DNA of 64,000 nucleotides. Source: an uncultured Acidobacteriota bacterium. GTDB lineage: Bacteria; Acidobacteriota; UBA6911; RPQK01. The notes under the pieces are model-generated. The model was not told the DNA's origin. It searched no databases and saw only the letters and a list, made by a program, of their open reading frames with translations. The stretch covers positions 39,352 to 103,351 of the forward strand of contig CAYQYP010000368.1 in NCBI GenBank assembly GCA_964421755.1, in the 5' to 3' direction. Positions 15,668 to 61,053 of this stretch are shown one piece after another; the first letter of the stretch is position 1, and each line of letters opens with the position of its first letter. Position numbers and translations under genes: made by a program.

Positions 15668-15860
15668 TCTCCCTGCCTTGTGCCTCGGCTGGAGGCTCGA
15701 TCGTCGCCTCATCGATCAGCATGACCGGAATACCGTCTCGAATCGGGTAGACTCGGTAGCATTTCACGCATTTGAGCGCGTTGCCTGCCGGCGTCAACAC
15801 TACGTCGGATTTGCAGGCCGGGCACGCAAGGATGCTCAACAGCTCTTCACTTATTGACAT
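15657..15860 (-). CDS. Trm112-family (UPF0434) protein
   Basis: LLSILACPACK...C..C..VYPIRDGIPVML. Confidence 0.9.
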   Translation of the reverse strand: MSISEELLSILACPACKSDVVLTPAGNALKCVKCYRVYPIRDGIPVMLIDEATIEPPAEAQGRESDS

Positions 15861-15902
15861 CGGTTCCTCGCAAACGTTTTCAGTTTCAGACTCTAGCAGC
15901 TT

Positions 15903-37668: not shown

Positions 37669-37855
37669 TGACGGCGGGCAGACGGCAACGGGCAGACGGC
37701 AACGGGCAAAGGGCAGCGGGCGGAGGGCAGTAGGCGGAGGGCAGTGGGCAGTGCGCAGTGCGCAGTGGTCCTTGCGTCTGCACTGCTGTTGCCTGTTCTT
37801 CAACCTTTTCCCGCCCGCAACCTTCCCTTCCCGCCGCCTTCTGCCTTCTGCCTTT
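37669..37855. repeat. GGCAG-type heptamer tandem repeat with an inverse CTGCCTT array
   Basis: Heptamers at 37677-37768 and (CTGCCTT)n at about 37835-37855. Confidence 0.75.
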
Positions 37856-39514: not shown

Positions 39515-41134
39515 ATGAGTGCAAAACAACGGGAGCAGCCGGCAAAGTTTGGATCGGAACCCAATTCGGCACGCCTGCTCTGGACAGCTCTCTTTCTCGC
39601 CTTCGGGGCGTACGCGGCGCTGTTCATCTACAAGACCAGTTTCGTGATCGACGGCGTCAGGTACTTCTCGCTGTTTGATGACGCGATGGTGGCGATGAAG
39701 TATGGCCACAACCTCGCCGCAGGCCATGGGCTGCTTTGGAATCCCGGCGAACCGCCCGTCGAGGGAGTGACCGACCCACTCTGGGTCTTGTACATGGGCC
39801 TGCTCCACCTTCTGCCGGTATCCGTGGCAAAGCTTAGCCTCCTGGTGCAGACGACTTCAGCGGTACTTCTTTTCCTCAACTTGCTGGTTATCCGCCGAAT
39901 AGCCGAGCGAGTTACCAGTACCGGGTTTGCGGGAGCCTTCTACGCGGCCGTCCTCACAGCCTTTTACTACCCCCTGAATAACTGGTCGTTGCAGGGCATG
40001 GAGGTAGGGTTGCTGGCTCTGATCGTCAGCCTAGCCGCCCTGCTTGCACTCGCCGGACAGCGGACAACCGGTTCGCTTCACCAGTTGTACCTGCTTCTCG
40101 GTGCGGCGACCCTGGTGAGGATGGATGCGGCGGTTGTCTGTCTCTCGGTCTGTCTCTTCCTTGCTTGGAGCGAGCCCAACTGGCGGCGAAAGCACCTGCT
40201 CATCGGCCTCGGTTGGCTGCTCGCGTTCCTGGCGCTCCAAACAACCGCCCGTTGGCTCTACTACGGCGAAGTGTTGCCCAATACTTACTATCTCAAGATG
40301 GTGGGATATCCGGCATTGGGAAGAATCAAGCGCGGATTTTCCGTCGCCGGAGAGATGCTCTTTCGACTGAATCCAATCCTGATCATTGCCACGGCTTTCG
40401 TTGTATGGAAAGAGGGCCGAAAGGAACTGCGGCTACTGGCTTTTATGATCCTCGGGCAGTTTGCATACTCGGTTTACGTGGGCGGAGACGCATGGGAGAT
40501 GCTGGGCGGCGCCAACAGATATATTTGCGTGGCAATGCCACTGTTCTTTGTGTTGTTTTCACATTCTCTCTTCACGCTGGCCTCCCGGCTGAAGGACGAC
40601 CGGATCAAGCGGAGAATTCTCCTTGCTCTTGTACCGTTTGCGCTAGTTACCTTCAACTGGACAGCCGGTCGTTACTGGCTTCGCGAGTGGCTCCTGCTGA
40701 CGCCACCCACGCAGGTGACAGAGAACGCACACTGGGTAAGCGTGGCTCTCCAACTGAAAGAAATCACCGAGCCGGATGCCACTATCGCGGTTATCTGGGC
40801 GGGTTCAATCCCTTACTTCTCTGACCGAAACTGCGTAGACATGCTGGGCAAGAGCGACAAGTACATTGCCCACCTGCCGATGCGCCGTCTCCTGATGGGC
40901 TTCTACCCCGGCCACATGAAGTGGAACTACGCTTACTCGATCGGAAGACTGCGACCAGACGTGGTCGCACAGATCTGGATGAACCGCGCCGAAGCTCGTC
41001 CTTTCGTCGAAGCGTGGTACGTCCCCCTGGACACGGGACGACTCTCCGTTTCTCTTCGCAGGGATTCAACGAGAATTCGGTGGCAAAAGGTCCGGGAACT
41101 GCTGCGAACTAACCGCGCGCCCCGATCTTCTTGA
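39515..41134 (+). CDS. GT-C-fold membrane glycosyltransferase
   Basis: LFDDAMVAMKYGHNL...GLLWNPGEPPVEG.TDPLW, many TM helices, R.DA, PNTYYLK, DMLG..D. Confidence 0.75.
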   Translation: MSAKQREQPAKFGSEPNSARLLWTALFLAFGAYAALFIYKTSFVIDGVRYFSLFDDAMVAMKYGHNLAAGHGLLWNPGEPPVEGVTDPLWVLYMGLLHLLPVSVAKLSLLVQTTSAVLLFLNLLVIRRIAERVTSTGFAGAFYAAVLTAFYYPLNNWSLQGMEVGLLALIVSLAALLALAGQRTTGSLHQLYLLLGAATLVRMDAAVVCLSVCLFLAWSEPNWRRKHLLIGLGWLLAFLALQTTARWLYYGEVLPNTYYLKMVGYPALGRIKRGFSVAGEMLFRLNPILIIATAFVVWKEGRKELRLLAFMILGQFAYSVYVGGDAWEMLGGANRYICVAMPLFFVLFSHSLFTLASRLKDDRIKRRILLALVPFALVTFNWTAGRYWLREWLLLTPPTQVTENAHWVSVALQLKEITEPDATIAVIWAGSIPYFSDRNCVDMLGKSDKYIAHLPMRRLLMGFYPGHMKWNYAYSIGRLRPDVVAQIWMNRAEARPFVEAWYVPLDTGRLSVSLRRDSTRIRWQKVRELLRTNRAPRSS

Positions 41135-44525: not shown

Positions 44526-45413
44526 ATGGGTTCAGCCGGAGTGAACAGGCGGGAGTTTCTGCGAACCTCAACGGTTGCCGCCGCGGTGGCGCCACTAATC
44601 AGTCGAAATGCCGCGGCAGCTGGTGCGGGTGAGATCAAAAAAGCCGTCTTGATCGGGATGCTTCCCAAGCAGCTCAGCTACCTGGAGCGTTTCACCCTCG
44701 CGAAGCGGGTCGGGTTCGAGGGTCTGGAGACCCAGACAGTCACCGAGCCGGGCATCGTGCAGGAAATTAAGGAAGCGGCCGCACAGGCTGGGTTGAAGAT
44801 CCATTCAGTGATGAACATGGACCACTGGAAGTATCCGCTCTCGAGTGCCGACCCCAAGGTTGTGGATCAGAGCGTCAAGGGGATGGAGACCTCGCTCCGA
44901 AACGCCAAAGACTGGGGCGCGGACGTCGTGCTTCTGGTGCCTGCGGTCGTCAACCCGGAAACCAGCTATAAGGACGCGTACACTCGGTCGCAGAAGCGAG
45001 TCAGAGACATGATCCCCCTCGCCAAAGAGCTCGGGGTGGTGATCGGGATTGAAGAGGTATGGAACAAGTTCCTACTCAGCCCGATCGAGTTTGCCCGGTA
45101 TATAGACGAGCTCGACAGCCCATGGGTGAAAGCCTATTTCGACGTGGGGAACGTCGTGCTGTTCGGGTATCCGGAAGACTGGATTCGAACACTCGGCAAA
45201 CGGATCGTCAAGCTGCACCTGAAAGACTTCAAATCCGAAACGAAGCAGTTCGTCCCGCTACGGGAAGGAAGTGTGAACTGGGTGCAGGTCCGAAAGGCGA
45301 TTGACGAGGTGGGCTTCAAGGGCTTTGCAACCGTGGAGCTCGAGGGCGGCGACGAGGCGTATCTTCGCGAAGTGAGCGCCCGCGTCGACAAAATAATCGC
45401 TGGCGCCAGCTAA
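44526..45413 (+). CDS. Tat-exported xylose-isomerase-like TIM-barrel sugar isomerase/epimerase
   Basis: NRREFL twin-arginine signal; IEEVWNKFL, YFDVGN, HLKDF, EGSVNW; GAGGAGG RBS. Confidence 0.85.
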   Translation: MGSAGVNRREFLRTSTVAAAVAPLISRNAAAAGAGEIKKAVLIGMLPKQLSYLERFTLAKRVGFEGLETQTVTEPGIVQEIKEAAAQAGLKIHSVMNMDHWKYPLSSADPKVVDQSVKGMETSLRNAKDWGADVVLLVPAVVNPETSYKDAYTRSQKRVRDMIPLAKELGVVIGIEEVWNKFLLSPIEFARYIDELDSPWVKAYFDVGNVVLFGYPEDWIRTLGKRIVKLHLKDFKSETKQFVPLREGSVNWVQVRKAIDEVGFKGFATVELEGGDEAYLREVSARVDKIIAGAS

Positions 45414-46288: not shown

Positions 46289-49006
46289 CTACCAAGCCGG
46301 CCCGAAGAATACGGCGTTCAACACCAGCAGATGCAATCCATCACAGAATGCCCGGAAACTCGGATCCTCTGAAAAGGCCACCACGTGACCGGATCCAAGC
46401 GGCTGATGGATGAGATAGGCCTTTTCCGCCAGCTGCCTGGTGGACTCAGGCCAGCTGTAGCCTGACAGCAGCAGTTTGTCCTCGGGCATGTACAGGCCTA
46501 CGTTTTGGCCCTTGTCGAGCTTGATCGGGGTAAAGATGTTCCGGCTCTGGACCAGGACGTTCGCGTCCCCATCGTAACCGAAAGCGAGCCAGTGCTCCGT
46601 GTCCAGCTTTACCCGCAGTATGGCCCCCGGCGTCACTTCGGGTAGTTCCTTTTCTGGTTGAATAGCCTTTTCCAGATCGAACGGTCGGCTTTCGGGCGGC
46701 TGTTTCTGGGCCTCCGGAGCCTTGCCATCCGCGTCAACCGGTTCTTTGGCGGGTTCGGCCGGGCGTTTTTCACCGCTACTTCCTCGAAATTCTCTCGAGC
46801 TGGCCAGCAGATCAACCTTCTCTTCGGTCAACCAGCGAGTCGCTTCCCCCATGGTTACAAGCGTTCCACCCGCCGAAATCCAGTCCTTGAGTCTGCGCAC
46901 CGCCTCGTCTCCGAAAATCGCAGAATAGCCGGCCCGCGAATCCGGGAGTACCAGCACGTCGTACTTTTGCAGCCGCGCGTTGCGAAGGCCCTGCGCATGC
47001 ACGATGGTGACAGGAACGGCGTACACCTGCTCGAGGAGGAATCGCAGTGCCCCGGCCGAAGCCGATGACGTCGGGGTGTTGTAGGCGAGCAGGACTTTGG
47101 GTTTCTTGACGTACTGTACGTGTCCGCTGCCGAAATTGATGCCTTGGTCAACCCATCCGGTGTCGGTTGAGTAGATATCCACGCCGCATTCCGAGCTGAC
47201 CTGCCCCATCAGGTCGTGCAGCTTGTCGGGGTTGCCGTTCACCTTTACGATAAGCGTTCCAGCCGGAAAGCTGGTCGCCCTCTGAACGAACGACTTGCCG
47301 GCTGAATAGACGCGCACATCTTCGGCGAGCAACCGGGAGAGCGCGCGTGCCGAGGAATCACCCGTCCAGGGGATGAGGTATGCCAGGGTGGCTTTGCCAC
47401 CGATCACCTTGCCTTGGTATCGAGGCGCAGCCGCAAGGATTTCCAAACGGGCTTTCGTTTCCTCTTCGGCTGCGAAGCAGTCAACGTCGTAGAGGAGAGG
47501 CAGTGACCAGGCGGTTATGTCATAGAATTCGTCGTCCAGGCGCTTCTTCCTGCGACGTTCCTGTTCCTTTATGAAATCCGCTTCGATTACCGTGTGCCTG
47601 GACAAAAGCGTGGATGCCAGCGCTTTGGCTGGCTGGGCCAGGGACACCACGTAGCTGCCTGCTGGGAACTCGCGAGCTTGCAGGGAGTCTCCGTAGAAAT
47701 CCTTCACTTTGGAATTCTTGAACGGCTCCTCCGCGCGTTTGACCTCGACGCCCTGAGCTATCAAATTCGCGGCCAGCTTCGCTGCCCGGGAAGGGTTCCT
47801 TTGCGGATCGATTATGTACTCGAGCACGGGCCCTTTTCTGCCCGATTCGATTGCTCCCTGGCGCGTGGCATGAAAGTACTTCAGCAGTTCCAGGCGATTC
47901 TTTGCAGCCGTCTCGACGGTTGCGAGCGAGGCAATGAAATGATGCTGGATCGCCTCGCGGTAATGGAGCAGTGTTTCGTCCTCTTTGCGCACGAGCAACC
48001 CTCGGGTCGACGCCTGCTCGAAGGTCATCCCGATGGACCCGTGAAACATGGGCCACCCTTCCCCGTACCCCGGGTAGAAGGAATCGAATACTTCCCGAGT
48101 GAAGTAATCGAAGTGCATTTTGTCGAACCACGCAGCGTTGTTCTTGCCGAACTGAACAAGCCAGTGGTTTTGCTCGCTGGTGAACTCAGGATTGAGCGGA
48201 GGCGCCGGGGGCGCGAAATAATACGTCGAGTCGGCCCCCATCTCGTGTAAGTCGACAAAGACCTGCGGGAACCAGGACAGATAGGCTTTCACACGCCCCT
48301 GGGTCTCAGGCTGCGTCAGTGCGAACCAATCCCGGTTCATGTCGAACAGGTAATGATTGGACCGTCCGCCAGGCCACGGTTCGTTGTGCTCGGCCGCTTC
48401 CTGGCTTTCATCCGGCCAGCGCCCGCGCGTCTGCCTGAAATAGCTGACGAACCGTTCGCGGCCGTCCGGGTTCTGAAGGGGATCGACAATGACAACGGCA
48501 TTTTCAAGGGCCAGTTGAGCCAGGGGATCGTCCTTGGCCGCGACGAGATGATAGACAGTAAGAAGTGCCGCCTCGGGGCTCGAGATCTCGTTCCCGTGAA
48601 CGCCGTAGCCCAACCACACGCAGACGGGCAGGGATTTGAGCAGTCTGTCCGCCTCACCTGAGGACAGCCGGTCCGGCCGGGCGAGCTTTTGAAGCCCTTC
48701 TTGTATTTGCGCCACCCGACCGATATTGGCCTGCGATGAAACGACGATATAGTGCAGGGGACGCTTCTCCCACGTCTCGCCGTACTTGACCAACTGCACT
48801 CGAGGCGAGGCTTTTGCCAGGGCCGCCATGTACGTCTCAATGCCTCGAGGATCCGTGATGTCTTCGCCCCAATCGTAGCCCATCACCTGCTTGAGCGTTG
48901 GAATGGAAGGGTCGTAGGAGGTCCCGGGGTAAAAATCAAAGCCGACAGCCTGATGGGTCAGCAGGCCGAACCATATCGCAAGCAGCAACGGGATTCTTGT
49001 TCGCAT
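46289..49006 (-). CDS. Secreted M14 zinc carboxypeptidase with a C-terminal GATase-like domain
   Basis: Signal peptide; GVHGNE, RSNHYLFDMNRDW, VDLHEMG. Confidence 0.88.
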   Translation of the reverse strand: MRTRIPLLLAIWFGLLTHQAVGFDFYPGTSYDPSIPTLKQVMGYDWGEDITDPRGIETYMAALAKASPRVQLVKYGETWEKRPLHYIVVSSQANIGRVAQIQEGLQKLARPDRLSSGEADRLLKSLPVCVWLGYGVHGNEISSPEAALLTVYHLVAAKDDPLAQLALENAVVIVDPLQNPDGRERFVSYFRQTRGRWPDESQEAAEHNEPWPGGRSNHYLFDMNRDWFALTQPETQGRVKAYLSWFPQVFVDLHEMGADSTYYFAPPAPPLNPEFTSEQNHWLVQFGKNNAAWFDKMHFDYFTREVFDSFYPGYGEGWPMFHGSIGMTFEQASTRGLLVRKEDETLLHYREAIQHHFIASLATVETAAKNRLELLKYFHATRQGAIESGRKGPVLEYIIDPQRNPSRAAKLAANLIAQGVEVKRAEEPFKNSKVKDFYGDSLQAREFPAGSYVVSLAQPAKALASTLLSRHTVIEADFIKEQERRRKKRLDDEFYDITAWSLPLLYDVDCFAAEEETKARLEILAAAPRYQGKVIGGKATLAYLIPWTGDSSARALSRLLAEDVRVYSAGKSFVQRATSFPAGTLIVKVNGNPDKLHDLMGQVSSECGVDIYSTDTGWVDQGINFGSGHVQYVKKPKVLLAYNTPTSSASAGALRFLLEQVYAVPVTIVHAQGLRNARLQKYDVLVLPDSRAGYSAIFGDEAVRRLKDWISAGGTLVTMGEATRWLTEEKVDLLASSREFRGSSGEKRPAEPAKEPVDADGKAPEAQKQPPESRPFDLEKAIQPEKELPEVTPGAILRVKLDTEHWLAFGYDGDANVLVQSRNIFTPIKLDKGQNVGLYMPEDKLLLSGYSWPESTRQLAEKAYLIHQPLGSGHVVAFSEDPSFRAFCDGLHLLVLNAVFFGPAW

Positions 49007-49090
49007 AGGCAGCAGGAGTCTAGCGGCTACGAGCGCCGATTTCAACAACTGCGCCTGCTTTGGCCCCTTAGAGGTTTCATCCGAAAAGCG

Positions 49091-50565: not shown

Positions 50566-51705
50566 TTACCGTGAAGAGGCCCCGGCCCTTCTGATAATAA
50601 TATCGCCGTTGACTGTATCCAGCCGGATGATCTCGCCACCGCCGTTCAGGTCAAAAACCGCCCGGATTTCCTCCGCCTGCTCATCCCGGACGTGCTCGGT
50701 TGCCTTGAAGTCCGAACGGACATCGTACCTGCTGCCTTCCGCCCTCCATCGGCCCTGGATTTTGATGGTCGCTTCAATCCGGGCCCTGGCGCCTTCAGGG
50801 ATGTTCAGCGTAATGCTGCCGCCGGAAGTGCTCAGCGTACTCGGGCCCTTGCCGGAGGGATTCAGTTCGGCAATCACGTCACCGCCCGCTGTTGAACCAT
50901 CCAGGGTCCCGGAAATTCCACGGAGCCGAAGGTCTCCCCCGGCCGTTCGCGCCTTGACATGACCGGTTGCGGACTGGCACTCGACATCGCCGCCGGCGGT
51001 CGTCAGGGTCGCCGACCCGCTCACCTGGCCTACTCGCACATCGCCACCGGCCGTGGTCAGGCTCGCCTCTCCGCCAACATCGCCGACCCGGACGTCCCCA
51101 CCTGCGGTGGTTGCCTTCAGCGATCGGCCGACATCGCCGACAACGACGTCGCCACCGGAGGTGCCGACAATCACGTCCCCGTCAGCACTGGTGAGGCGGA
51201 TATCGCCGCCCGCTGTTTTCAGTTCAACGTCTCCTTGGACGGCGCCTGCCGTCACATCTCCGCCCGAAGTCTTCAGGCTGACTTTGCCGTTCAGATCGCC
51301 GACCGTGATGTCGCCGCCCGCTGTCGAACCTGTGACTGTCCCCGTCAGGGTTCCCACGATCCGGATATCGCCACCGGCCGTTTTCAGCTGGACGTCAAAG
51401 CGCGACGGTATATTGATTTCGAAGTGAACGTCCCCACTGGACTCCTCGGGCCGGAAGTCGACATGAACGACATTCCCCGACTGGGTCATCGACAGACGCG
51501 CCACCTCTTCTTCATCGATACCGAACACCTCAACCGACACCTGGTTTTGTCCCCACGTGTTCAGGGTTACGTCACCGACCGAAGTGTTCAGCACGAGAGA
51601 TCCGCCGGCGCCGACCTCGAACGTCTTGGAGCGATCCGCCGCCAGCACCGGCGAAATGAAAATCAACATCAGCACGACACTTGAACACCAGGCTCTCTTG
51701 CTCAT
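50566..51705 (-). CDS. DUF4097 beta-strand-repeat secreted protein
   Basis: Signal peptide and many (T/S)AGGD(V/I) repeats. Confidence 0.85.
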   Translation of the reverse strand: MSKRAWCSSVVLMLIFISPVLAADRSKTFEVGAGGSLVLNTSVGDVTLNTWGQNQVSVEVFGIDEEEVARLSMTQSGNVVHVDFRPEESSGDVHFEINIPSRFDVQLKTAGGDIRIVGTLTGTVTGSTAGGDITVGDLNGKVSLKTSGGDVTAGAVQGDVELKTAGGDIRLTSADGDVIVGTSGGDVVVGDVGRSLKATTAGGDVRVGDVGGEASLTTAGGDVRVGQVSGSATLTTAGGDVECQSATGHVKARTAGGDLRLRGISGTLDGSTAGGDVIAELNPSGKGPSTLSTSGGSITLNIPEGARARIEATIKIQGRWRAEGSRYDVRSDFKATEHVRDEQAEEIRAVFDLNGGGEIIRLDTVNGDIIIRRAGASSR

Positions 51706-52631
51706 TTTTCTTTGGCCTCCTCGACCACGGCCCTCGACCGCACCCGGATGTACTCGTTCGCATCCGTCTGCATACTTTCTTCCAAAACCCTCAGTACCTT
51801 GGGATCGCGAGAATTCTGAGTCTTGATTGCATCTATCGCAGCGATTCGCAAAGCCGGATTGGGATCCGACGTCAGTACATAGAGCAACGAATCGCGTACC
51901 TCAACATCGAATGGAAAATTCAACAGGGCTGCAAGGGCTTGCTTTCTGACGCCGTCATTCTCATCAAGCTTCACGGCCGTGATCAGCGCGTTTTTGACTT
52001 CCGGATCCGGCTGCTTCATCTGATCGGTGTTCAATACTCCAACCGCTCGCAGGCGGGTCCCCGGGTTTTGTCCGTTGACCAGCGCCCTGCTCAGAATTTG
52101 TTGGATTCGCTCGTCGTTCACGTCGCCCTTGAGGCGGACCGGCATCGTCGCCTCGTAACTGAACTCCACCTGCCCATCGCTCGGATCAGCGTCCAGAAAG
52201 CGGACATTGCTGATGGCAGCGTCTTCGATCGAAGCCCACTTGTTCGGCACGCTGGGGGTGATCAGCGTCCCCGGGGGGCCGTCCTGACGACCCCTGAACA
52301 CCAGGTACCCGATCCCCAGGCCCAACAGGATGCACAAAGCACCTGCAAGCGCGCCTTGCCACGCGGGAAGCCAGGACCAAAGCCACGAAGCACTCTTGCG
52401 CTCGCTCATCGACAGCATCCGGATCCGGAGCTCGCGTCGAGCCGATTCGAGCACCTGGTCCGGGATTTCGGACCGTCGACCGAGCATCTCCTGCACGTGG
52501 TTCAGCTCTTCCAACTGGCTCGTGCACTCGGGGCAGGCCTTCAGATGCTGCTGGAGCAGGTACTTTTGGTCTTCGTCGAGTTCACCGTATCCCAGCAGCG
52601 GGATCCATTCTTTGAACTGACTGTGTTTCAT
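51702..52631 (-). CDS. zf-HC2 anti-sigma factor with a TM helix and periplasmic HEAT repeats
   Basis: YGEL...HLKACPEC; TM helix; NPGTRLRAV, NDGVRKQAL, NPALRIAAI, NEYIR repeats. Confidence 0.85.
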   Translation of the reverse strand: MKHSQFKEWIPLLGYGELDEDQKYLLQQHLKACPECTSQLEELNHVQEMLGRRSEIPDQVLESARRELRIRMLSMSERKSASWLWSWLPAWQGALAGALCILLGLGIGYLVFRGRQDGPPGTLITPSVPNKWASIEDAAISNVRFLDADPSDGQVEFSYEATMPVRLKGDVNDERIQQILSRALVNGQNPGTRLRAVGVLNTDQMKQPDPEVKNALITAVKLDENDGVRKQALAALLNFPFDVEVRDSLLYVLTSDPNPALRIAAIDAIKTQNSRDPKVLRVLEESMQTDANEYIRVRSRAVVEEAKEK

Positions 52632-52651
52632 ATGGCTCTCCTGCGACTCCG

Positions 52652-53248
52652 CTATGTCAGGACCGGCTTCAGGCTGTCCCGCAAACGCTCCGTTGCGGTA
52701 AAGAGGTACTTTTTGACCGTCCCCTCGGCACAGTTCATCATCGCTGCGATTTCTCTGAGTTTGTATCCCTCGTAATGGCGGAGGGTAAAGACCAGACGTT
52801 GTTGCGGTGAAAGTGTTTTCATGGCCATCGCAACGTGCCGCGCCACCTCACCGTCGTACGCTTTCTGGTCGGAAGACCGTTCGTCCGACGCTTGTTTTTC
52901 GAGCAGGCTCTGGCTCTCCTCGTCCTCGACGAAATCCAAGGAGTCAGCCTCCCGGTTCTTCCGTCGGCGTTGCTGTGTCAGGCAGACGTTCACCACGATC
53001 CGGTACAACCACGTGGAGAACCGGGCATCGAACCGGAACTTCGGCAGCGCCTTGAAAACTCTGAGGAAGACTTCCTGGTAAACATCCTTGGCATCGTCCA
53101 GGTTGTTGCCCGTATAGCTGGCCGCAATGGCCAGGACTTTCCGGTCGTACCGATACACCAGGTCCTCAAACGCGCGCCTGTCGCCCCGTTGTGCCAAGAG
53201 TATCAGCTCCCTTTCTTCCTCGAGCGTCCCTGAGTGATCGCTTAACAC
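52652..53248 (-). CDS. ECF RNA polymerase sigma factor
   Basis: GDRRAF..LV.RY, DAKDVYQEVF, FSTWLYRI, LSPQQRLVF.LRHYEG..LREIA, GTVK. Confidence 0.93.
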   Translation of the reverse strand: MLSDHSGTLEEERELILLAQRGDRRAFEDLVYRYDRKVLAIAASYTGNNLDDAKDVYQEVFLRVFKALPKFRFDARFSTWLYRIVVNVCLTQQRRRKNREADSLDFVEDEESQSLLEKQASDERSSDQKAYDGEVARHVAMAMKTLSPQQRLVFTLRHYEGYKLREIAAMMNCAEGTVKKYLFTATERLRDSLKPVLT

Positions 53249-53289
53249 GGTCGTTAGACTCCGTAAGGGTTGAAAAAGTTGTGGGCCTG

Positions 53290-53368
53290 GTTGGTCCCGC
53301 TTCCAACTGGGACATTCTATCCAAAGCACTGCAAGAGGACAGCTGTCCGACTTGGAAGTCGGACCTCG
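53290..53368. repeat. Inverted REP doublet (GTCCGAC family)
   Basis: GTTG-GTCCCGCTTCCAACTGGGAC at 53290-53313 and GTCCGACTTGGAAGTCGGAC-CTCG at 53345-53368. Confidence 0.8.
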
Positions 53369-53380
53369 TGAAGCAAAGTA

Positions 53381-54379
53381 CTAGGCGATTCGCGGGCGGA
53401 AGACCTGGCAGGATAGCTCGGCAAAAGCCTCGCGGAGTTTCGCGAACACTTCATCGCTCTCGCAAATCCCGACGATCGAACCGCCCGAACCTGCGTACTT
53501 GGCCGATACCCCGAAACTGCGGGCAAGACAAACCATCTCGACATTGCGCGGATCCAACTTGCAGATGGAGGCGCGCGTGTCGAAATTCAGGTTCATGAGC
53601 TTGTGGAGCGTCTTGTAATCCCTGCGAAGCAGGGCGTCGCGACCTTGAGCTGCCAGGTCGGCAAACGTCTTCATAGCGTTGATCACGGCCGGCTCACCCT
53701 GTTCCCAGCGAGTTCTCAGATTACTGTGGAAGATGCCCGAAATCTGGCTGAGGTCCGTCCGGCAGGCGATGTAAAGCGGCGGCAGAAGCGCCGGATCGAG
53801 CGGCTCGTACGTCCCGTACCCCCTGGTCTCCAGCAATTCCCGGTCAAAATCCATGTAAACCAGCCCCTCGTAGACTTGGCAAACCCGGTCCTGGAGACCC
53901 GCGTCGATGCCGATCTCGCTCTTTTCGACTTCGAGGATAAGGTTCGGAAGCATCTCCCTTGGAATCGAAACCGAATAGAATTCAGTAAGGGCCCGAAAAA
54001 CCGCGGTGATTATGGCGCTTGATCCCGACAACCCGACCTGACGCGGGATGTCGCTGTCGTACCGAAGCGCGAAATTCTCGCCCGAGAGGTTGATCTTCTG
54101 ACTCTGACAGTACTCGACGAACCGCTTGATTGACGCCTTGATCAGGCGCAGGCCGCCATAAAGGCCGTTGAGTTTTACATCCTCGACCAGATCTTCCAGG
54201 CGGTCGAATTGGCAGCGATCCTGCCGGCTGAGAATGATCTCGATCTCCGGCCACTCGTAGACGACCACTTCGGCGCAGAAGTTCTTGACGATCACCGAGA
54301 TCGTCTTCCCGAAATAACCGTCGGAAGGATTCCCGAGCAGCCCCGCCCGAGCGTACGCCTTAGCTTTAACGATCTTCAC
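53381..54379 (-). CDS. GHMP kinase, glucuronokinase-like
   Basis: ARAGLLGNPSDGYFGKTIS, YDSDIPRQVGLSGSSA, AGLQDRV.QVY, MDF, MNLNFD.R, AKYAGSGG: the motif set of plant glucuronokinases as recalled. Confidence 0.8.
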   Translation of the reverse strand: MKIVKAKAYARAGLLGNPSDGYFGKTISVIVKNFCAEVVVYEWPEIEIILSRQDRCQFDRLEDLVEDVKLNGLYGGLRLIKASIKRFVEYCQSQKINLSGENFALRYDSDIPRQVGLSGSSAIITAVFRALTEFYSVSIPREMLPNLILEVEKSEIGIDAGLQDRVCQVYEGLVYMDFDRELLETRGYGTYEPLDPALLPPLYIACRTDLSQISGIFHSNLRTRWEQGEPAVINAMKTFADLAAQGRDALLRRDYKTLHKLMNLNFDTRASICKLDPRNVEMVCLARSFGVSAKYAGSGGSIVGICESDEVFAKLREAFAELSCQVFRPRIA

Positions 54380-55256
54380 GGCACAACTCCTGAAGCCGCT
54401 GCCTTAGTTTCGGCCCGAGTTGAGGATCGTCAAGGGCGAACTCGAGAAATGCCTCGAAATAGCTTTCGAAATTGCCTATGTCGTAGCGCTCTTCGCCGGG
54501 AGGGAGACGGACACCCAGGATTTTCTCCCCCTGCTTGAGAAGCAAGCGGATGGCATCGGTGAGCTGAATCTCGCCATTTTTCCCCGGTAGTGTTTGCGCG
54601 ATCGCCTCGTAAATTGCCGGTGAGAATACGTAACGAGCGGCTATCGCAAGCCGACTGGGGGCTTCTTCGGGCGACGGCTTTTCAACGAGATCTTCGATTT
54701 CGAAGGTACTTCCGTTCCCCACCGCCTTAACGATGCCGTACTGACCGACAGCCGCCGCAGGCACTTCTTCCACCGCGATCACGCAGGCAGCCTGGCAGCT
54801 GACGAAGTCCCGGATCATCTGTCTTACGACCTGCGACGAGGCATTGCGACCCAGGATGCTGTCGCCCAGGGCTACCACGAACGGGCGGTCCTGGGTGAAA
54901 TGCCGCGCGCACAAGACTGCGTCACCCAGTCCTTTTTGTCGTCGTTGGCGGGAGTAGAAGAACTCCATCCGCATCCGTTCGTATTCCAGTTCCGGAAGCA
55001 GATCTTCTTTCCCCCCTTCCCGCAATCGGCGGGTCAGCTCATAGTCGAAATCGAAGTGATCTTCGATTGAGCTCTTGTTCCGACCCGTAACGAACAGGAT
55101 CTGTTTGATCCCGTTGCCCTCGAGCTCCTCGACCACATACTGCACAACCGGTTTCTTTCCAACCGGAAGCATTTCCTTCGGTTGGGACTTGGTGGCGGGC
55201 AGCAGACGAGTTCCCAGTCCGGCGACCGGTATTACCGCAATCTGAATGTCATCCAT
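54366..55256 (-). CDS. galU: GalU-family UTP:sugar-1-phosphate uridylyltransferase
   Basis: AVIPVAGLGTRLLPATKSQPKEMLPV, IEDHFD, KGLG.AV, LVEKP, EIQLTDA. Confidence 0.85.
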   Translation of the reverse strand: MDDIQIAVIPVAGLGTRLLPATKSQPKEMLPVGKKPVVQYVVEELEGNGIKQILFVTGRNKSSIEDHFDFDYELTRRLREGGKEDLLPELEYERMRMEFFYSRQRRQKGLGDAVLCARHFTQDRPFVVALGDSILGRNASSQVVRQMIRDFVSCQAACVIAVEEVPAAAVGQYGIVKAVGNGSTFEIEDLVEKPSPEEAPSRLAIAARYVFSPAIYEAIAQTLPGKNGEIQLTDAIRLLLKQGEKILGVRLPPGEERYDIGNFESYFEAFLEFALDDPQLGPKLRQRLQELCREDR

Positions 55257-55259
55257 TGA

Positions 55260-56690
55260 TTACTTCCCCGTTGGCTGCCCTGTTTCGGCCATCTCGAGCG
55301 CTTTGGTCGTCGTGTAGTATTTAGCGATCATGTTGGGGACTTCCCAATCCGGCAAACGTCCGCGCACCAGGTAGCCCAGGTACTTCTCCGCGACCTGCCC
55401 GAAGTGAGCCTCATGGCCCACCCGGTATTTGTCGGGTATACGAACGTGGTAGAGCTTTCCGACTTGCCGAACCTCGAGACCGGGATACGCGGAGTTCAGG
55501 CCGTCGACCGCCTTGTTCAAAGCGTCGAACACCGCTATCGCATCCATTTCCGGGGTCGGCTCAACGTAGAGCTCAGGCCTGTAGTTCTCCTCTTTGCCCT
55601 GTTGAATAATGATGTTGGACCTGGTGCCTCGCATGATCGAATAGTGTGTATCGCCTGCGCCTTGAGGAGCTTCGAAATTCCAGATCACTGATACTTTGGC
55701 ATGAAGACCGCGGAGCCTGTAGATCATCTCCCCGTTCGAGTAATAGGGGAGATTCCCGTCGCTGTCCAGCTGCGATTTCAGGTAATCGGGGAACTCCGTG
55801 GCAATGGTGACCTTGGCCAACTGCTCCTTTGTCACGATGGTGGGCCATCGGCGAGCCTTGATCATCTGTATTTCTGTCTTGTAGTTGACCTTGTAGCCCG
55901 GGAAGGCACCCCACATGACGAGGTCGACGAGGTGGGTGGCAACATCCACCAACCCCTCGCCCTGCTGCTTGACATCGAGGTACCAGAGCGGTCTCTTCAG
56001 AGGCTGACCGGCCACGTATTTGAACAGATGGTGGACGCTCTCCTTGGTGATGGTCGGTTCCTCTGGCGAGCCTATCCGATAGTTCCCGAACACCTGCCAG
56101 TTATGAGACAGCTCCTTCTGGAGGATACTGGTGATCTCATAACGTTCGGTCATAATGTCGTAGAGCTGGACGTTGTTTTTCCGGGCCGACTCGAACGCCA
56201 CTCGCAGGACTTCCCAGCCCTTCTGGTCGATGCACATCGGTTTGTCGGCGAGGACGTTTATCCCGGCATCCACGCATCTCTTGATGTACTCGGTCTTCCG
56301 CTGATTGTTGCCGGCGAGGATGACCACATTACCGGGCCGTTCCGACATCATCTTGTCGAAGAAATCAGGACCCCGGTAGATCTTTTGCTCCCAGCGCGTC
56401 GGGTTTTCGGCGCGAGTATTGAAGCCCTGCACCCGCTTCAGGTGTTCTTCAAGGTCCCACCCGTCCGGAGCATAGACGTGAACGAGGGGGGCAACCTGCG
56501 GATACATCGTTTTCTGGACGAGGGCCGCATGGAAGTGACCAGGGTCTACCACCATGAGTTTGACCTCTCCGGGAGCTCCGCTGAACTTGCCTTTTGTCTG
56601 CATAGCGACGGTAAACAAGGCCCCGATGCAAAGAAGTAACACCAGCGGCCTGAGTTTCGATGATGGTGATTGGGGATTTTTGTGTTTCAT
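55260..56690 (-). CDS. Secreted Gfo/Idh/MocA-like oxidoreductase with a putative oxidoreductase C-terminal domain (BT2159-like)
   Basis: DPGHFHAALVQK, GNNQRKTEYI, VLADKPM, YDIMTER, GEGLVDV.THLVDL. Confidence 0.75.
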   Translation of the reverse strand: MKHKNPQSPSSKLRPLVLLLCIGALFTVAMQTKGKFSGAPGEVKLMVVDPGHFHAALVQKTMYPQVAPLVHVYAPDGWDLEEHLKRVQGFNTRAENPTRWEQKIYRGPDFFDKMMSERPGNVVILAGNNQRKTEYIKRCVDAGINVLADKPMCIDQKGWEVLRVAFESARKNNVQLYDIMTERYEITSILQKELSHNWQVFGNYRIGSPEEPTITKESVHHLFKYVAGQPLKRPLWYLDVKQQGEGLVDVATHLVDLVMWGAFPGYKVNYKTEIQMIKARRWPTIVTKEQLAKVTIATEFPDYLKSQLDSDGNLPYYSNGEMIYRLRGLHAKVSVIWNFEAPQGAGDTHYSIMRGTRSNIIIQQGKEENYRPELYVEPTPEMDAIAVFDALNKAVDGLNSAYPGLEVRQVGKLYHVRIPDKYRVGHEAHFGQVAEKYLGYLVRGRLPDWEVPNMIAKYYTTTKALEMAETGQPTGK

Positions 56691-56766
56691 GTCTTCTTAT
56701 TGATTCGCCATTCGCCGATTCGGCCAACCGGGTGGAAGCCACCCGGGACTCGAGCCGATTGCCGGC

Positions 56767-57606
56767 TCAGAGACCCAGCGCCTTCATTGTCCCGCGCAGG
56801 TATCCGATGGATTCGGCTGCCCCCGCCAGCGGATCGTCCTCGTCCTTCTCGTATTCGAGAGCCAGAACTCCGGTGTACTTGATTTTCTTCAGAGTCCTCA
56901 GAAAACCCGGGATGTCTATAACACCGCGCCCGACCTCGACCGTACTTCCTTTGGCCGTGGCCTCGGATACGTCCTTGATATGGACGTCAAACAGTCGATC
57001 CGCTGCCTTCCTGGCCGCCTGTGCTGGATCGATGCCGCTCCTCTGGGTGTGCCCGACATCGATGCACAGCCCCAGTTTCGGATCGCGTTTGTCGATTTTT
57101 TCCAACACGCTCTCCGGCGTAGGGTACAGCTTATCTCCGGGTCCGTGGTTGTGAATGGCCAAGCGGATATCATACTCCTTCACTTTGGCCTCCACGAGAT
57201 CCAGCAACTCGTGGTTCGGAACGCCGATAATGAGCTTCATGCCGGCAGCCCGCGCATAATCAAAGCCCTGGCGAACCTCCGCTTCCGACTTCATGTAAAC
57301 CACACCGCATCCATACAGGTCTAGCCCCTGCTCGCGTACCTGGGCTGCGATTGTCTTGATCTCTTCAAGCCCGGTTTCCAGCGGCAGGTGCATGCTCTTG
57401 AATGCGACCCTGGTCAAACCCAGACGCTTGGTCATCGCGAGGGCTTGCTCCCGCGGGAACTTCCGGAAAGTGTACGACGCCATCCCAAGCGGCAAATCGC
57501 CCGCGGCACTTTGCGTCCGGCCCTGAGCGTGAACAAGGGCCGGCGCAAGAACCGCCCCGCCTGCCGCGACAAGGAAATTTCTCCGGTTTGGAGTGACTCC
57601 TGCCAT
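56767..57606 (-). CDS. Tat-exported xylose-isomerase-like TIM-barrel protein (BT2156-like)
   Basis: NRRNFL signal; ASYTFR, AIHNHGP.D..YP, DVGHT, HIKDV, EVGRG.IDI, LEYEKD. Confidence 0.8.
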   Translation of the reverse strand: MAGVTPNRRNFLVAAGGAVLAPALVHAQGRTQSAAGDLPLGMASYTFRKFPREQALAMTKRLGLTRVAFKSMHLPLETGLEEIKTIAAQVREQGLDLYGCGVVYMKSEAEVRQGFDYARAAGMKLIIGVPNHELLDLVEAKVKEYDIRLAIHNHGPGDKLYPTPESVLEKIDKRDPKLGLCIDVGHTQRSGIDPAQAARKAADRLFDVHIKDVSEATAKGSTVEVGRGVIDIPGFLRTLKKIKYTGVLALEYEKDEDDPLAGAAESIGYLRGTMKALGL

Positions 57607-57687
57607 AGCGACCTCCTGATCGAAAAATGCGTCTAACTCGGTTTCACTATTGCACATCGTGGTCCCCATTGTGAATCACGAACTAGC

Positions 57688-57810
57688 CCGAATGCGGAAT
57701 GTGGATGCGGAATGCGGAATCAAGAAGTGAAAGCGTCGCTGTCGCCGCGCGGTGTGCTTGTTTGCCTTTCTATTCCGCATTCCGCACTCCGCATTCCGCA
57801 TTCCGCATTT
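57688..57810. repeat. GCGGAAT/ATTCCGC heptamer inverted tandem element
   Basis: Forward run at 57689-57720 and inverse run at 57771-57809, in the divergent intergenic region. Confidence 0.88.
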
Positions 57811-57870
57811 CTTGACGCCATCCGGGCGGTATAGCAGAATCAGGCGTTTGACAAGGAGCGCCACTCGCCC

Positions 57871-60800
57871 ATGTACCGCAGTTCTATTCGACCCTGGGAC
57901 TATCTGATCGTGACCGCCTCAAACCGGCAGCAGGCTCTCGCCTACGAGCGGCAGCTGGAACTGCGCACCCGACTCGGATACCTGACCGACGTCCGGCGGA
58001 GCCTCGTCGTCGCCGATCCCGACGGCAAGCGGATCGGCAGCGGAGGAAGTACCCTCTACTCCCTGCTTGCCGTCCTGAACCAGGAATTGAGCCAAATCAC
58101 CGGCGACCGCCTGAATCCCAACCTGTGGGAGCAGGTATTCAGAAAACTGAGAATCCTCATTGTCCACGCCGGGGGGGACTCGAGGCGGCTGCCCGCCTAT
58201 GCCCCTTGCGGAAAGCTTTTCATTCCGGTTCCCGGAGATAACGACGGGGCGCTCACAACCACGCTGTTCGACCGCCAGATCGCTACCTACCTCGGGTTGC
58301 CCGGACCGGCAGACGACGCAGGTCAGATCGTGGTGACGGCCGGGGACGTACTGCTCACCTTCGATCCATCTCAGGTCTGCTTTGCTCCCGCAGGGGTGAC
58401 CGGACTCGGCTGCCACTCTTCGCCGGAAGAGGCCTCGAGGCACGGAGTTTACTGTGTCGGATCGGGCGGCGCGGTCCGCCTCTACCTGCAGAAACCGTCC
58501 GAAAGCCAACAGAGAGCGGTGAATGCGATCGACCGCTACGGGCGAAGCGTCCTCGATATTGGAGTTCTGAACTTCGACAGCGGGACCGCCGCGCGGCTCC
58601 TGGCGCTTTTCGAGATAGAGGTGAGCGGGGCGAACGAGCTCCAGTGGAGCCAGACCATCGATGATCTCCTCAAGGCACGGGGGCTCGATGTTTACCGGGA
58701 AGTGTGCTGCGCGATGGGTAGCGGCGTCGACTTTGACCGTTACCTGCAGTCGGCCGTGGAGAGCGGCTCGATCCTTGGCAAGAGTTTCCTCTCACGTCTG
58801 TTCGAAGGCCTCTCGATAGTCCCCTTCCATGCTCAGACGATCGAACGCTGCGGCTTTCTGCATTTCGGGACGACGCGCCACATCATTGAGAGCGGCGCGG
58901 AGCTGGCCCGCCGAGACCGTGGGCTGTCGAGGCTGAATGAACCCCTGACGGTCAATACGGTTTTCTTCGAGGGCGGAGGCGTCCTCGGCGCCGACTCGTG
59001 GATCGAAGGTTGCCGAGTGCACTCGCCGGTGCAACTGGGGGGAGCGAACATCGTCGTGGGCGCGGACATCGAGAGACCGCTCGAACTCGGGGTGGGTGAC
59101 TGCCTGGACGTTGTAGAGGGGCAAGACCGTTTGGGTCACCGAGTTTTCTTCAATCGGCTGTACGCGGTCTCGGACAGCTTCAAGGGCACCTCTGCAGAGA
59201 CGCGCTTTTGCGGGCAGCCTCTTCGGAACTGGATCCAGGCGATGGGCGCCCGGGACGAGCAGATCTGGCCAGCCGAGGTGTCGCCTGAAGCGCGCAGTAT
59301 CTGGAATGCGAGGTTATTTGTAGCGACGGCGGAGCCCTCCGGCTTCTTCGAATGGCTCTGGCTCTTCAAGCCTGAAGATGCAGGGGACTCCGACCGCAAG
59401 CGCTACCTGGACGCCGACCGGTACAGTCTGAGCGAGATGGGGAACCTTGCGGATTTTGAAGCATTCTACCGACGCCGCGCCGAGATCCGCGCGACCGAAA
59501 TCGGGCAGTCTCTATCCGCAATCTTCCGACCGGACAGTCGCTTCTCGGCCTCCGAGCTGGCCTGGATACTCGAGCGCTCCGACCAGCCGGACAGGCTGAT
59601 CCAAGGACTGATTGCCGAGGCGCGATGGCATGCCGGATCGTGCGCCGAAGCCGGCATGCAGATCTTCACGCTTTCCCGGTTGGTCCATTCCCTGGGCACC
59701 GCTGTCGCCTTGCTTGGGGAAACGAACAACGAGATGGCCGAGCGACTCGTCGGCGCGCTTCAGACGAGCCTGGGAACTGAAGACCGCGAATGGCTGGCAT
59801 CCCAGCAACTCTGCCCTGAAGCCCGGAATTCCGGCAAATGGAGGGATCAGGCGCAGGACTTCGCCTTCGACCAGCTCGGGTGCGCCATCCTCGACAGCGC
59901 GTCGACAGAGTTGCAGGATCCGCCCCGCAATGCCCTGCGACCCGACGAAATCGTCTGGGGACGGGCACCGGCCAGGCTCGATCTGGGAGGCGGCTGGACC
60001 GACACTCCTCCGTATTCGCTGGAATTCGGCGGGAGCGTGATCAACGCAGCCGTGAACCTCAATGGACAGCCACCTATCCAATGCTACGCGCGGGTGACGG
60101 AAGACCGGGTGATTCGTATCGGCTCGATCGATCAGGGCACAAGGATCCAAATCGCCGATTTCGACTCGTTGCTCGACTATCGGCAGGCAACGAGCGAGTT
60201 CGGGCTTGCCAAAGCTGCCCTGGCCCTCTCCGGCTTTTGTCCGGCCGTAACCCGAGCGAATCGGCCGGCGACCCTCGGGGCATTGCTTGACCGGTTTGGA
60301 GGCGGAGTCGAGCTCACTACTTTGGCTGCGATCCCAAAGGGGAGCGGGCTCGGAACATCAAGCATCATGGGCGCGGTGGTCTTGTCCGTGATCGCAAGAA
60401 TGCTCGGGCGAACCCTGTCTCAACGAGACCTCTTCCACGCGGTTCTCCGGCTGGAGCAGGCGCTCACGACCGGCGGCGGCTGGCAAGACCAGATCGGGGG
60501 AGCAGTGGATGGCGTCAAGGTCATCAGCTGCGCGCCGGGACTTATCCCCGACCCGCGTATTCATTACGTCCCTGCGGATGTCCTGGACCCGCGCTCCAAC
60601 CGAGGGACGACGCTGCTGTTCTACACGGGGATCACTCGATTGGCAAAGAACATCCTGCGTGACGTGGTCGGCCGGTATCTCGACAGGGACCGCACCGCCC
60701 TCGCGACTCTCCGGCAGCTCCACGGGCTACCTCCCTTGGTTGCGGACACGATGGCCCGAAAAGATCTGCCCGCGTTCGGCCGGATGATTGACACCGCCTG

Positions 60801-61053
60801 GCGGCTGAACAAACAGCTCGACCCGCACTCCAGCAACGAGAAGATCGAAAGCCTGCTTCAGACGCTGGCACCGCACTTGCACGGGGCTAAGCTCCTGGGT
60901 GCAGGCGGGGGCGGATTCCTGCTCATGGTCTGCAAATCCCCGGAGGCCGCCGCAGAGGTCCGGGCGCTCCTGACATCGGCTCCCCCCAATCCCCGCTCGC
61001 GCTTTTTCGATTTCGACGTGAGCGCGGAGGGTTTGGTTGTCAGCGTCTGCTGA
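57871..61053 (+). CDS. fkp: Bifunctional L-fucokinase / fucose-1-phosphate guanylyltransferase
   Basis: N-terminal DPDGKRIGSGG.T and HAGGDSRRLP..APCGK; C-terminal PARLDLGGGWTDTPP, PKGSGLGTSS, TTGGGWQDQ, GAKLLGAGGGG. Confidence 0.88.
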   Translation: MYRSSIRPWDYLIVTASNRQQALAYERQLELRTRLGYLTDVRRSLVVADPDGKRIGSGGSTLYSLLAVLNQELSQITGDRLNPNLWEQVFRKLRILIVHAGGDSRRLPAYAPCGKLFIPVPGDNDGALTTTLFDRQIATYLGLPGPADDAGQIVVTAGDVLLTFDPSQVCFAPAGVTGLGCHSSPEEASRHGVYCVGSGGAVRLYLQKPSESQQRAVNAIDRYGRSVLDIGVLNFDSGTAARLLALFEIEVSGANELQWSQTIDDLLKARGLDVYREVCCAMGSGVDFDRYLQSAVESGSILGKSFLSRLFEGLSIVPFHAQTIERCGFLHFGTTRHIIESGAELARRDRGLSRLNEPLTVNTVFFEGGGVLGADSWIEGCRVHSPVQLGGANIVVGADIERPLELGVGDCLDVVEGQDRLGHRVFFNRLYAVSDSFKGTSAETRFCGQPLRNWIQAMGARDEQIWPAEVSPEARSIWNARLFVATAEPSGFFEWLWLFKPEDAGDSDRKRYLDADRYSLSEMGNLADFEAFYRRRAEIRATEIGQSLSAIFRPDSRFSASELAWILERSDQPDRLIQGLIAEARWHAGSCAEAGMQIFTLSRLVHSLGTAVALLGETNNEMAERLVGALQTSLGTEDREWLASQQLCPEARNSGKWRDQAQDFAFDQLGCAILDSASTELQDPPRNALRPDEIVWGRAPARLDLGGGWTDTPPYSLEFGGSVINAAVNLNGQPPIQCYARVTEDRVIRIGSIDQGTRIQIADFDSLLDYRQATSEFGLAKAALALSGFCPAVTRANRPATLGALLDRFGGGVELTTLAAIPKGSGLGTSSIMGAVVLSVIARMLGRTLSQRDLFHAVLRLEQALTTGGGWQDQIGGAVDGVKVISCAPGLIPDPRIHYVPADVLDPRSNRGTTLLFYTGITRLAKNILRDVVGRYLDRDRTALATLRQLHGLPPLVADTMARKDLPAFGRMIDTAWRLNKQLDPHSSNEKIESLLQTLAPHLHGAKLLGAGGGGFLLMVCKSPEAAAEVRALLTSAPPNPRSRFFDFDVSAEGLVVSVC

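Follow-up and report, generated by a model that had tools for sequence, protein, structure and literature searches.

Two kinds of described system come closest to the genes discussed here. In the oxidation-elimination-hydration glycoside pathway formed by BT2156-BT2159 of Bacteroides and AL1-AL4 of Alistipes, BT2156/AL1 is a beta-lyase (3-keto-beta-glucoside 1,2-lyase) with a general secretory (Sec) signal, BT2157/AL2 (DUF1080) is an alpha-lyase/hydratase, BT2158/AL3 is a 3-dehydrogenase exported by the twin-arginine translocation (Tat) pathway, an export linked to tightly bound NAD, and BT2159/AL4 is predicted to be cytoplasmic (bioRxiv 10.1101/626366; 10.1101/2024.03.25.586180). The glucuronokinase of Arabidopsis has been characterised biochemically and belongs to the myo-inositol-oxygenase route by which UDP-glucuronic acid (UDP-GlcA) is made (PMC2823444), and in zebrafish GKUP an N-terminal bacterial-type pyrophosphorylase is fused to a C-terminal glucuronokinase (PMC3938481). 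Genes recalling both kinds lie side by side in a 64,000-nucleotide stretch of DNA from an uncultured Acidobacteriota bacterium (contig CAYQYP010000368.1, positions 39,352 to 103,351; "the window"), where a triose-phosphate isomerase (TIM) barrel protein, a PF16490 oxidoreductase, a GalU-family uridylyltransferase and a GHMP kinase form a four-gene unit. A sequence-only reading of this DNA had proposed that the four genes couple the non-hydrolytic cleavage of glycosides to nucleotide-sugar salvage. We find it probable that the unit is instead a clade-specific juxtaposition of two independent two-gene modules, a UDP-sugar salvage pair (module A: uridylyltransferase and kinase) and an exported pair (module B: TIM barrel and PF16490 protein).

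Compared with plant GlcAK (EC 2.7.1.43) and zebrafish GKUP, module A shows full-length kinase homology and the order pyrophosphorylase then kinase, as in the zebrafish fusion. Unlike GKUP, the window has two overlapping, unfused genes, and its partner enzyme is of the GalU family whereas that of the plant route is a UDP-sugar pyrophosphorylase (USP type). Module B has in common with BT2156-BT2159/AL1-AL4 an exported PF01261 TIM barrel and an exported protein of the Gfo/Idh/MocA fold, and the window also holds a Tat-type Gfo/Idh/MocA protein with a superfamily-level match to the BT_2158 family. In contrast, the oxidoreductase of the unit is a PF16490 protein of neither the BT_2158 nor the BT_2159 family, and the window is without a DUF1080 protein (tblastn only), a cytoplasmic reductase (scanned open reading frames) and a BT2160-type regulator. 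The PF16490 orthologues carry Sec or lipoprotein signals, the reverse of the Tat export of BT2158/AL3. AtOGE of Agrobacterium tumefaciens, a 3-keto-O-glycoside beta-eliminase (8BVK, PMC10628242), belongs to the same superfamily as the TIM barrel and has identical Mn2+-binding/base residues, but the similarity is weak, and AtOGE is partnered by a flavin-dependent oxidase to which nothing in the window is comparable. The true nearest relatives of module B are the solved structures 4OO3 and 3LMZ/3P6L/4KW2, which supply the fold and carry no assigned function.

Gene order in the unit and in other genomes

All four open reading frames (ORFs) are present at 53381-57606 and co-oriented, as the sequence-only reading had it (Table 1). 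The gaps between them are 76 nt from TIM barrel to oxidoreductase, 3 nt from oxidoreductase to uridylyltransferase and -14 nt, an overlap, from uridylyltransferase to kinase, and from this spacing alone the four genes are probably read as one transcript. The ATG of the TIM barrel gene at 57606 is a better start than the ORF start at 57669, because it is preceded by an AGGAGG Shine-Dalgarno sequence 5 nt upstream. A sigma-70-like scan of the region found a sole minus-strand site, 57675-57646, among four sites in total (2.0 ± 1.6 expected), and neither promoter- nor terminator-like sites were in excess over shuffled sequence across the scan. A terminator-like match at 54336-54321 (minus) was rejected: it lies inside the kinase gene, and the scan total was no higher than that of shuffled sequence. 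The 76-nt gap holds a GC-rich hairpin, CCGGGTGG-CTTC-CACCCGG (minus strand, 56700-56760), without a T-run, whose role may lie in processing or stability and not in termination.

Table 1. Features of the unit and of its surroundings, in window coordinates.
Feature	Position	Strand	Remarks
GHMP kinase (module A)	53381-54379	minus	332 aa; Pfam GHMP_kinases_N + GHMP_kinases_C
GalU-family/NTP_transferase uridylyltransferase (module A)	54366-55256	minus	296 aa; Pfam NTP_transferase E 1.3e-31
PF16490 'Oxidoreduct_C' oxidoreductase (module B)	55260-56690	minus	476 aa; PF16490 408.9 bits
AP_endonuc_2 xylose-isomerase-like TIM barrel, 3LMZ subgroup (module B)	56767-57606	minus	PF01261 E 9e-25
Sigma-70-like promoter match	57646-57675	minus	consensus match alone, just 5' of TIM start
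Tat Gfo/Idh/MocA protein	49093/49111-50433	opposite to unit	Tat motif INRRDFV
Second Tat TIM barrel	44526-45413		Tat motif VNRREFL
Extracytoplasmic function (ECF) sigma factor, zf-HC2/HEAT anti-sigma factor, DUF4097 protein	50566-53329	minus	downstream of kinase; Pfam from syntenic L001, L169 genes
Bifunctional L-fucokinase/fucose-1-phosphate guanylyltransferase-like gene (FKP)	57871-61053	plus	Fucose_pyrophosphorylase + GHMP domains; NF009948 588 bits, cut-off 721
Palindromic element of tandem GGAATGC heptamers on both arms	57689-57811	none	divergent TIM/FKP intergenic region

Two sets of loci served for the synteny analysis, 80 species-representative genomes centred on the kinase and 80 metagenome contigs centred on the PF16490 protein; in both, the window genes were located by tblastn. 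Of the PF16490 loci, 49 were informative downstream (at least 2 kb of sequence) and 53 upstream (at least 1 kb). No PF16490 gene occurs within 10 kb of the kinase at any of the 80 kinase loci, and none has an orthologous TIM barrel; the candidate in L018 is a convergent paralogue (43% identity). Seen from the other side, kinase and uridylyltransferase follow PF16490 at two of the 49 informative loci, both of them 73-79% identical relatives of the window, and they are never among the recurrent PF16490 neighbours. Clustering of ORFs showed that those neighbours are Tat-type Gfo/Idh/MocA proteins (22 loci), the TIM barrel, DUF6807 proteins, DegT aminotransferases and SSF symporters. A TIM orthologue (60-68% identity) lies upstream of PF16490 at 12 of the 53 informative metagenome loci, in several lineages, either adjacent or with one short Gfo gene between, and human-gut contigs carry the PF16490 gene without a neighbouring TIM barrel. 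The four genes are therefore two independently conserved pairs.

The juxtaposition occurs within one acidobacterial clade. PF16490 stands next to uridylyltransferase and kinase in at least six contigs (L001, L089, L090, L169-L171, L172), so the linkage is not unique to this genome, yet it is confined to that clade. The window, L001, L089 and L090, the four lineages compared, are 74-89% identical to one another in amino-acid sequence, and the flanks vary. One flank of L001 holds FKP and proB, the upstream flank of L089 and L172 runs from alaS through a glycerate-kinase-like gene, and in L090 proBA lies directly upstream of PF16490, with the TIM barrel, FKP and the downstream ECF sigma gene all absent. 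In L169-L171 the TIM barrel is again absent, and a gene for a 148-aa thioredoxin-family protein stands between PF16490 and the uridylyltransferase. The linkage can do without the TIM barrel, the proposed lyase, and can accommodate an unrelated gene. The functional coupling proposed for the four genes is thus not borne out: the link is missing at all 80 kinase loci and at 47 of the 49 PF16490 loci, and within the clade the TIM barrel is dispensable and a thioredoxin gene has been inserted.

Properties of the two gene pairs

The window kinase was compared with an Arabidopsis protein named 'putative glucuronokinase' by NCBI (P0242). The two are 45% identical over 321 aligned columns, essentially their full length (262 bits, E 4e-90), and share the long identical motifs GNPSD.YFG, IPRQ.GLSGSSAI, GLQDRV.QVY, LLPPL and SGGA/S. 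The other GHMP models of NCBIfam (HddA heptose kinase, mevalonate kinase, galactokinase) reach at most 46 bits with the window kinase, far under their cut-offs, and the galactokinase models about 25 bits or less. The full-length homology to a characterised glucuronokinase is clearly above that to other GHMP kinases, and the description of the kinase as glucuronokinase-like holds. By its sequence the window kinase is an orthologue-level relative of the plant enzyme, and D-glucuronic acid (GlcA), phosphorylated at C1, is most likely its substrate.

More than 8000 homologues of the kinase were found; the best 120 are 63-89% identical and spread across Acidobacteriota, Planctomycetota and Aminicenantes, and identity in the species-representative genomes is 51-69%. 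The automated naming of JGI calls many of these homologues 'glucuronokinase'. An exact-sequence look-up of the window kinase gave no match, and the literature searched on glucuronokinase contained no characterised bacterial member.

The uridylyltransferase scores 297.6 bits with the galU equivalog model TIGR01099, just under the cut-off of 326.8, and its best solved relatives are the YngB and GalU structures (E 2e-69). The salvage half of the sequence-only reading, a glucuronokinase-like kinase partnered with a GalU-family uridylyltransferase, is sound, and it is well supported because the kinase is so similar, over its full length, to the Arabidopsis enzyme. A GalU-family gene is immediately adjacent to the kinase on the same strand at 58 of the 80 kinase loci, in many phyla. 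At 31 of the 80 loci the partner lies upstream and is 59-72% identical to the window uridylyltransferase; at 27 it lies downstream and is 35-47% identical, and the two downstream partners that were scanned score 344.6 and 382.3 bits, both above the GalU equivalog cut-off. The upstream arrangement, a sub-threshold GalU-like gene that often overlaps the kinase, is found mainly in Acidobacteriota, Planctomycetota and Sumerlaeota, and the downstream arrangement, with the GalU-family gene 3' of the kinase, in Verrucomicrobiota, Bacteroidota, Phycisphaerae and others (loci L009-L088 for both). The partnership has apparently been assembled or rearranged at least twice. An overlap of 14 or 8 nt between uridylyltransferase and kinase recurs in L001, L003, L004, L169 and L172.

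Besides the uridylyltransferase the kinase has no recurrent partner, save an NAD-dependent epimerase/dehydratase gene that follows the pair at five loci. We considered this enzyme as a clue to the UDP-sugar and rejected it; its NCBIfam placement is generic, intermediate between GalE and dTDP-glucose dehydratase, with scores under both cut-offs.

For module B, the oxidoreductase is a clear member of PF16490, far above the gathering threshold of 27 bits (Table 1) and with the fold of 4OO3, and its match to the Gfo/Idh/MocA Rossmann domain PF01408 is weak. 4OO3 (Parabacteroides merdae PARMER_00841) is also its nearest solved relative by sequence (E 1.7e-174, 56% identity). An AlphaFold model with a predicted local distance difference test score (pLDDT) of 84.8 superposes on 4OO3 with template-modelling (TM) scores of 0.89/0.96 and a root-mean-square deviation of 1.6 Å. 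The remaining PDB neighbours of the model are all Gfo/Idh/MocA enzymes at 10-16% identity, and the P2B11 glucuronide 3-dehydrogenase (8TDI) is found at rank 37 with 13% identity. The likeness to BT2159 that had been proposed for this protein is not supported. The NCBIfam model BT_2159_fam (NF058563, 'disaccharide 3-dehydrogenase') gives 11.5 bits (E 0.11) against a cut-off of 650, and the N-terminus is a hydrophobic Sec-type signal or anchor, as opposed to the predicted cytoplasmic location of BT2159. BT_2158_fam (NF058561, glycoside 3-dehydrogenase, cut-off 750) does not match the PF16490 protein even at E <= 10. The N-terminus of the protein has no RR motif and hence not the twin-arginine signal of the BT_2158 type, and the signals of the PF16490 orthologues, Sec or lipoprotein, are never Tat.

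In the PF16490 family an invariant DPGHFHA replaces the Gly-rich dinucleotide loop (GxGxxG-type), and the invariant DKP (149-151) and D249-x3-H253 resemble the Lys/Asp-x3-His triad pattern of BsIDH and BT2158. The PF16490 protein may be no classical dehydrogenase, because the Gly-rich loop is replaced and because Sec export would not bring pre-loaded NAD(P). Profile-profile alignment of the PF16490 alignment with the Gfo/Idh/MocA protein of the window gave a probability of 0.4%, nothing meaningful. The literature searched on PF16490, 4OO3, 3LMZ, DUF6807 and PARMER_00841 yielded nothing on function; a mention of PF14100 in a metagenomics paper on beta-galactosidases proved unrelated.

The TIM barrel carries the twin-arginine motif NRRNFLV, with RRNFL conserved in its orthologues. 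The sequence-only reading was right in calling it a Tat protein and in having both proteins of the pair exported, the TIM barrel by a Tat-type and the oxidoreductase by a Sec-type signal. Its comparison of the TIM barrel with BT2156 stands only at the level of the very broad PF01261 fold; the closest relatives are the structural-genomics entries 3LMZ (E 1e-66), 3P6L (1e-30) and 4KW2 (6e-23). No NCBIfam model named for BT2156 matched the TIM barrel or its L007 orthologue at E <= 10, and such a model may not exist; a DUF1080 protein scanned against NCBIfam was not matched by any model either. With AtOGE, phmmer gave a weak match (E 3.8e-5, 26.6 bits over about 95 residues), in which His132, His134, Asp163 and His189 of AtOGE are aligned to identical residues (HNH, D, H), ligands that are widespread in the superfamily and do not by themselves establish membership. 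The best NCBIfam match is IolE (myo-inosose-2 dehydratase, which acts on a keto-cyclitol), with 42.6 bits and E 5e-11 against a cut-off of 290. This alignment and this match make it plausible that the TIM barrel catalyses an elimination or isomerisation of a keto-sugar or cyclitol. The PF16490 protein is not an orthologue of BT2159, and the TIM barrel is probably not one of BT2156.

Elsewhere, PF16490 recurs in the neighbourhood of DegT-type aminotransferases of unusual length (449-497 aa), of large SSF symporters and of DUF6807 proteins (L105, 4198-12918; L111, 8149-9534; L007, 4975-9378), and DUF6807 is also found fused to PF16490 (P0161, P0164, P0205, P0219). This company hints at an oxidation/transamination pathway.

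Surroundings of the unit

The additional Tat Gfo/Idh/MocA enzyme (49111) and Tat TIM barrel (44526) that had been pointed out near the unit are both real (Table 1). The Gfo gene lies about 3 kb past the kinase end of the unit, with the ECF sigma/anti-sigma/DUF4097 trio between, and its product scores 125.8 bits with BT_2158_fam (cut-off 750), a superfamily-level match. Between it and the second Tat TIM barrel is a gene for a 919-aa protein (46289-49048, minus) that begins with an M14 zinc carboxypeptidase domain and whose long C-terminal region is without assignment.

In agreement with the sequence-only reading, tblastn with one DUF1080 query, a limited test, found no DUF1080 gene in the window, and the BT2156-BT2159-type neighbourhood, in which one operon combines DUF1080 with a Tat glycoside 3-dehydrogenase, is absent. 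Sugar transporter, glycosidase, DUF1080, DUF6807 and DegT genes were found neither among the scanned window ORFs nor with four tblastn queries, and one of those queries, for SSF, and the scanned ORFs likewise gave no transporter. The scanned ORFs also included no cytoplasmic 3-keto reductase and no myo-inositol oxygenase gene. The surrounding genes are of the housekeeping kind (proBA, purF-like, purM-like, tRNA methyltransferase). Three long plus-strand ORFs have no Pfam match at E <= 1e-5: 24604-27579 (991 aa), 37744-39117 (457 aa) and 39515-41134 (539 aa).

FKP, divergent from the TIM gene, is a second nucleotide-sugar salvage enzyme beside the unit. It is kept in L001 and absent at that position in L089, L090, L169 and L172. 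At the unrelated locus L105 an FKP gene (14216-17395) stands with gmd and a WecG glycosyltransferase gene near a PF16490 gene, and alpha-L-fucosidase genes are found near PF16490 in L005 and L169. We considered a link to fucose from these occurrences and rejected it, the pattern being too sporadic.

The genes syntenic to the sigma/anti-sigma/DUF4097 trio have 54-68% tblastn identity to the window genes. The position of the trio is conserved in L001, L089 and L169-L171; L172 ends after the sigma gene, and the trio is absent from L090. The ECF ORF starts about 35 codons upstream of the onset of homology, and its true start is probably internal.

The palindromic element between the divergent TIM and FKP genes has a predicted folding energy of -72 kcal/mol (z = -6.25). 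The window contains 10 matches to a 16-mer of it, where 0.1 would be expected, and positions 6427-6540 hold a second copy. The element has the look of an intergenic repeat of the REP or MITE kind (repetitive extragenic palindrome or miniature inverted-repeat transposable element), or an operator in a divergent promoter region.

Alternative explanations and significance

In the juxtaposition that we favour, module A would be cytoplasmic, with uridylyltransferase and glucuronokinase-type kinase translationally coupled through their 14-nt overlap. The kinase would place a phosphate on C1 of a free sugar, most likely D-glucuronic acid, and the uridylyltransferase would convert the sugar-1-phosphate and UTP to a UDP-sugar, most likely UDP-GlcA, so that the pair would be an unfused bacterial counterpart of the plant route of glucuronokinase and UDP-sugar pyrophosphorylase. 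Module B would be extracytoplasmic and consist of the Tat-exported, presumably metal-dependent TIM barrel of the 3LMZ subgroup and the Sec-exported PF16490 protein, which probably act jointly, with redox chemistry and an elimination or isomerisation, on a carbohydrate or cyclitol. In the clade the two modules would share one promoter region. Several points weigh against this account. Only 3 nt separate the stop of PF16490 from the start of the uridylyltransferase, which in this genome speaks for co-transcription and perhaps for coupled translation, and the retention of the PF16490-uridylyltransferase-kinase block in at least six contigs of the clade despite differing flanks could reflect selection rather than inertia. 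Within module A, the predicted specificity for GlcA leans on 45% identity to a plant enzyme, and the partner is GalU-like, while GalU enzymes normally use glucose-1-phosphate, the canonical substrate. Within module B, the proposed chemistry has a weak basis, in view of the DPGHFHA loop and of the Sec export, by which no pre-loaded NAD(P) would be delivered.

The first two of these points would also fit a single pathway in this clade, in which the exported pair oxidises and then eliminates glucuronosides and the freed uronic acid, once imported, is turned directly into UDP-GlcA by kinase and uridylyltransferase. Besides the co-orientation and close spacing of the genes, the retained block and the glucuronokinase-like kinase, such a pathway could draw on the identity of the TIM barrel with AtOGE at the metal and catalytic positions and on its match to IolE, a keto-cyclitol dehydratase. 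Two precedents can be added: in Phycisphaerae L007 the orthologous TIM barrel and PF16490 genes have as neighbours DUF1080 and a Tat Gfo gene resembling BT_2158 at the superfamily level, and P2B11 is a known glucuronide-cleaving 3-keto cluster without DUF1080. The PF16490 protein, however, fails both the BT_2159 and the BT_2158 model, is Sec- and not Tat-exported, has a degenerate dinucleotide loop, and has the P2B11 dehydrogenase only as a distant structural neighbour. The known route moreover gives a 3-keto sugar, which needs reduction before any C1 kinase can act, and neither a cytoplasmic 3-keto reductase (scanned ORFs) nor a transporter (scanned ORFs and the SSF query) was found in the window. 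The linkage is missing at every kinase locus and nearly all informative PF16490 loci, and within the clade the proposed lyase is missing in L090 and L169-L171, the last three of which also carry the thioredoxin insertion. We therefore give little credence to the idea that the exported pair of this clade processes a uronic-acid glycoside non-hydrolytically and that the product is channelled to UDP-GlcA; if true, oxidative glycoside cleavage and nucleotide-sugar salvage would be directly coupled at the genetic level. Even less probable is that module B is a periplasmic pair for the oxidation and dehydration of cyclitols of the inositol type, like IolG and IolE, with no glycoside cleavage. IolE is the top NCBIfam match of the TIM barrel, the PF16490 model has scyllo-inositol and inositol dehydrogenases among its structural neighbours, and an inositol monophosphatase gene lies near PF16490 in L105; yet the IolE score is far under its cut-off, the structural neighbours include many equally ranked dehydrogenases of other sugars, and no other iol genes were found among the scanned window ORFs. 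A further alternative leaves the two modules separate and has module A salvage another sugar (galacturonic acid, glucose, galactose, xylose or arabinose), in which case its likeness to glucuronokinase would come from subfamily ancestry and not from substrate. A change of specificity is possible at 45% identity, the literature searched offers no characterised bacterial member, and the partner is GalU-like, with both scanned examples of the downstream partners (27 of 80 loci) passing the cut-off of the glucose-1-phosphate equivalog. We nevertheless consider this unlikely in view of the full-length identity and long shared motifs with the plant enzyme, the low galactokinase scores and the automated 'glucuronokinase' names of many members; the epimerase/dehydratase that follows the pair at five loci, generic in NCBIfam, fits a further conversion of the UDP-sugar.

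If the juxtaposition is the true explanation, the four-gene 'pathway' came about by chance in the gene order of a single clade and calls for no new biology. Both halves are additions to known or catalogued families. The PF16490 family counts thousands of members, with about 60% identity across phyla, and a structure has been solved for it; its recurrent partners are a starting point for assigning a function. The kinase/GalU pair spans Acidobacteriota, Planctomycetota, Verrucomicrobiota, Bacteroidota, Sumerlaeota and others and is a reasonable target for characterisation. Should the pair turn free GlcA into UDP-GlcA, the genome-scale models of these organisms lack this salvage route. Glucuronokinase and GalU together may represent a widespread bacterial path to UDP-GlcA, undescribed by experiment, in which UDP-glucose dehydrogenase is bypassed.

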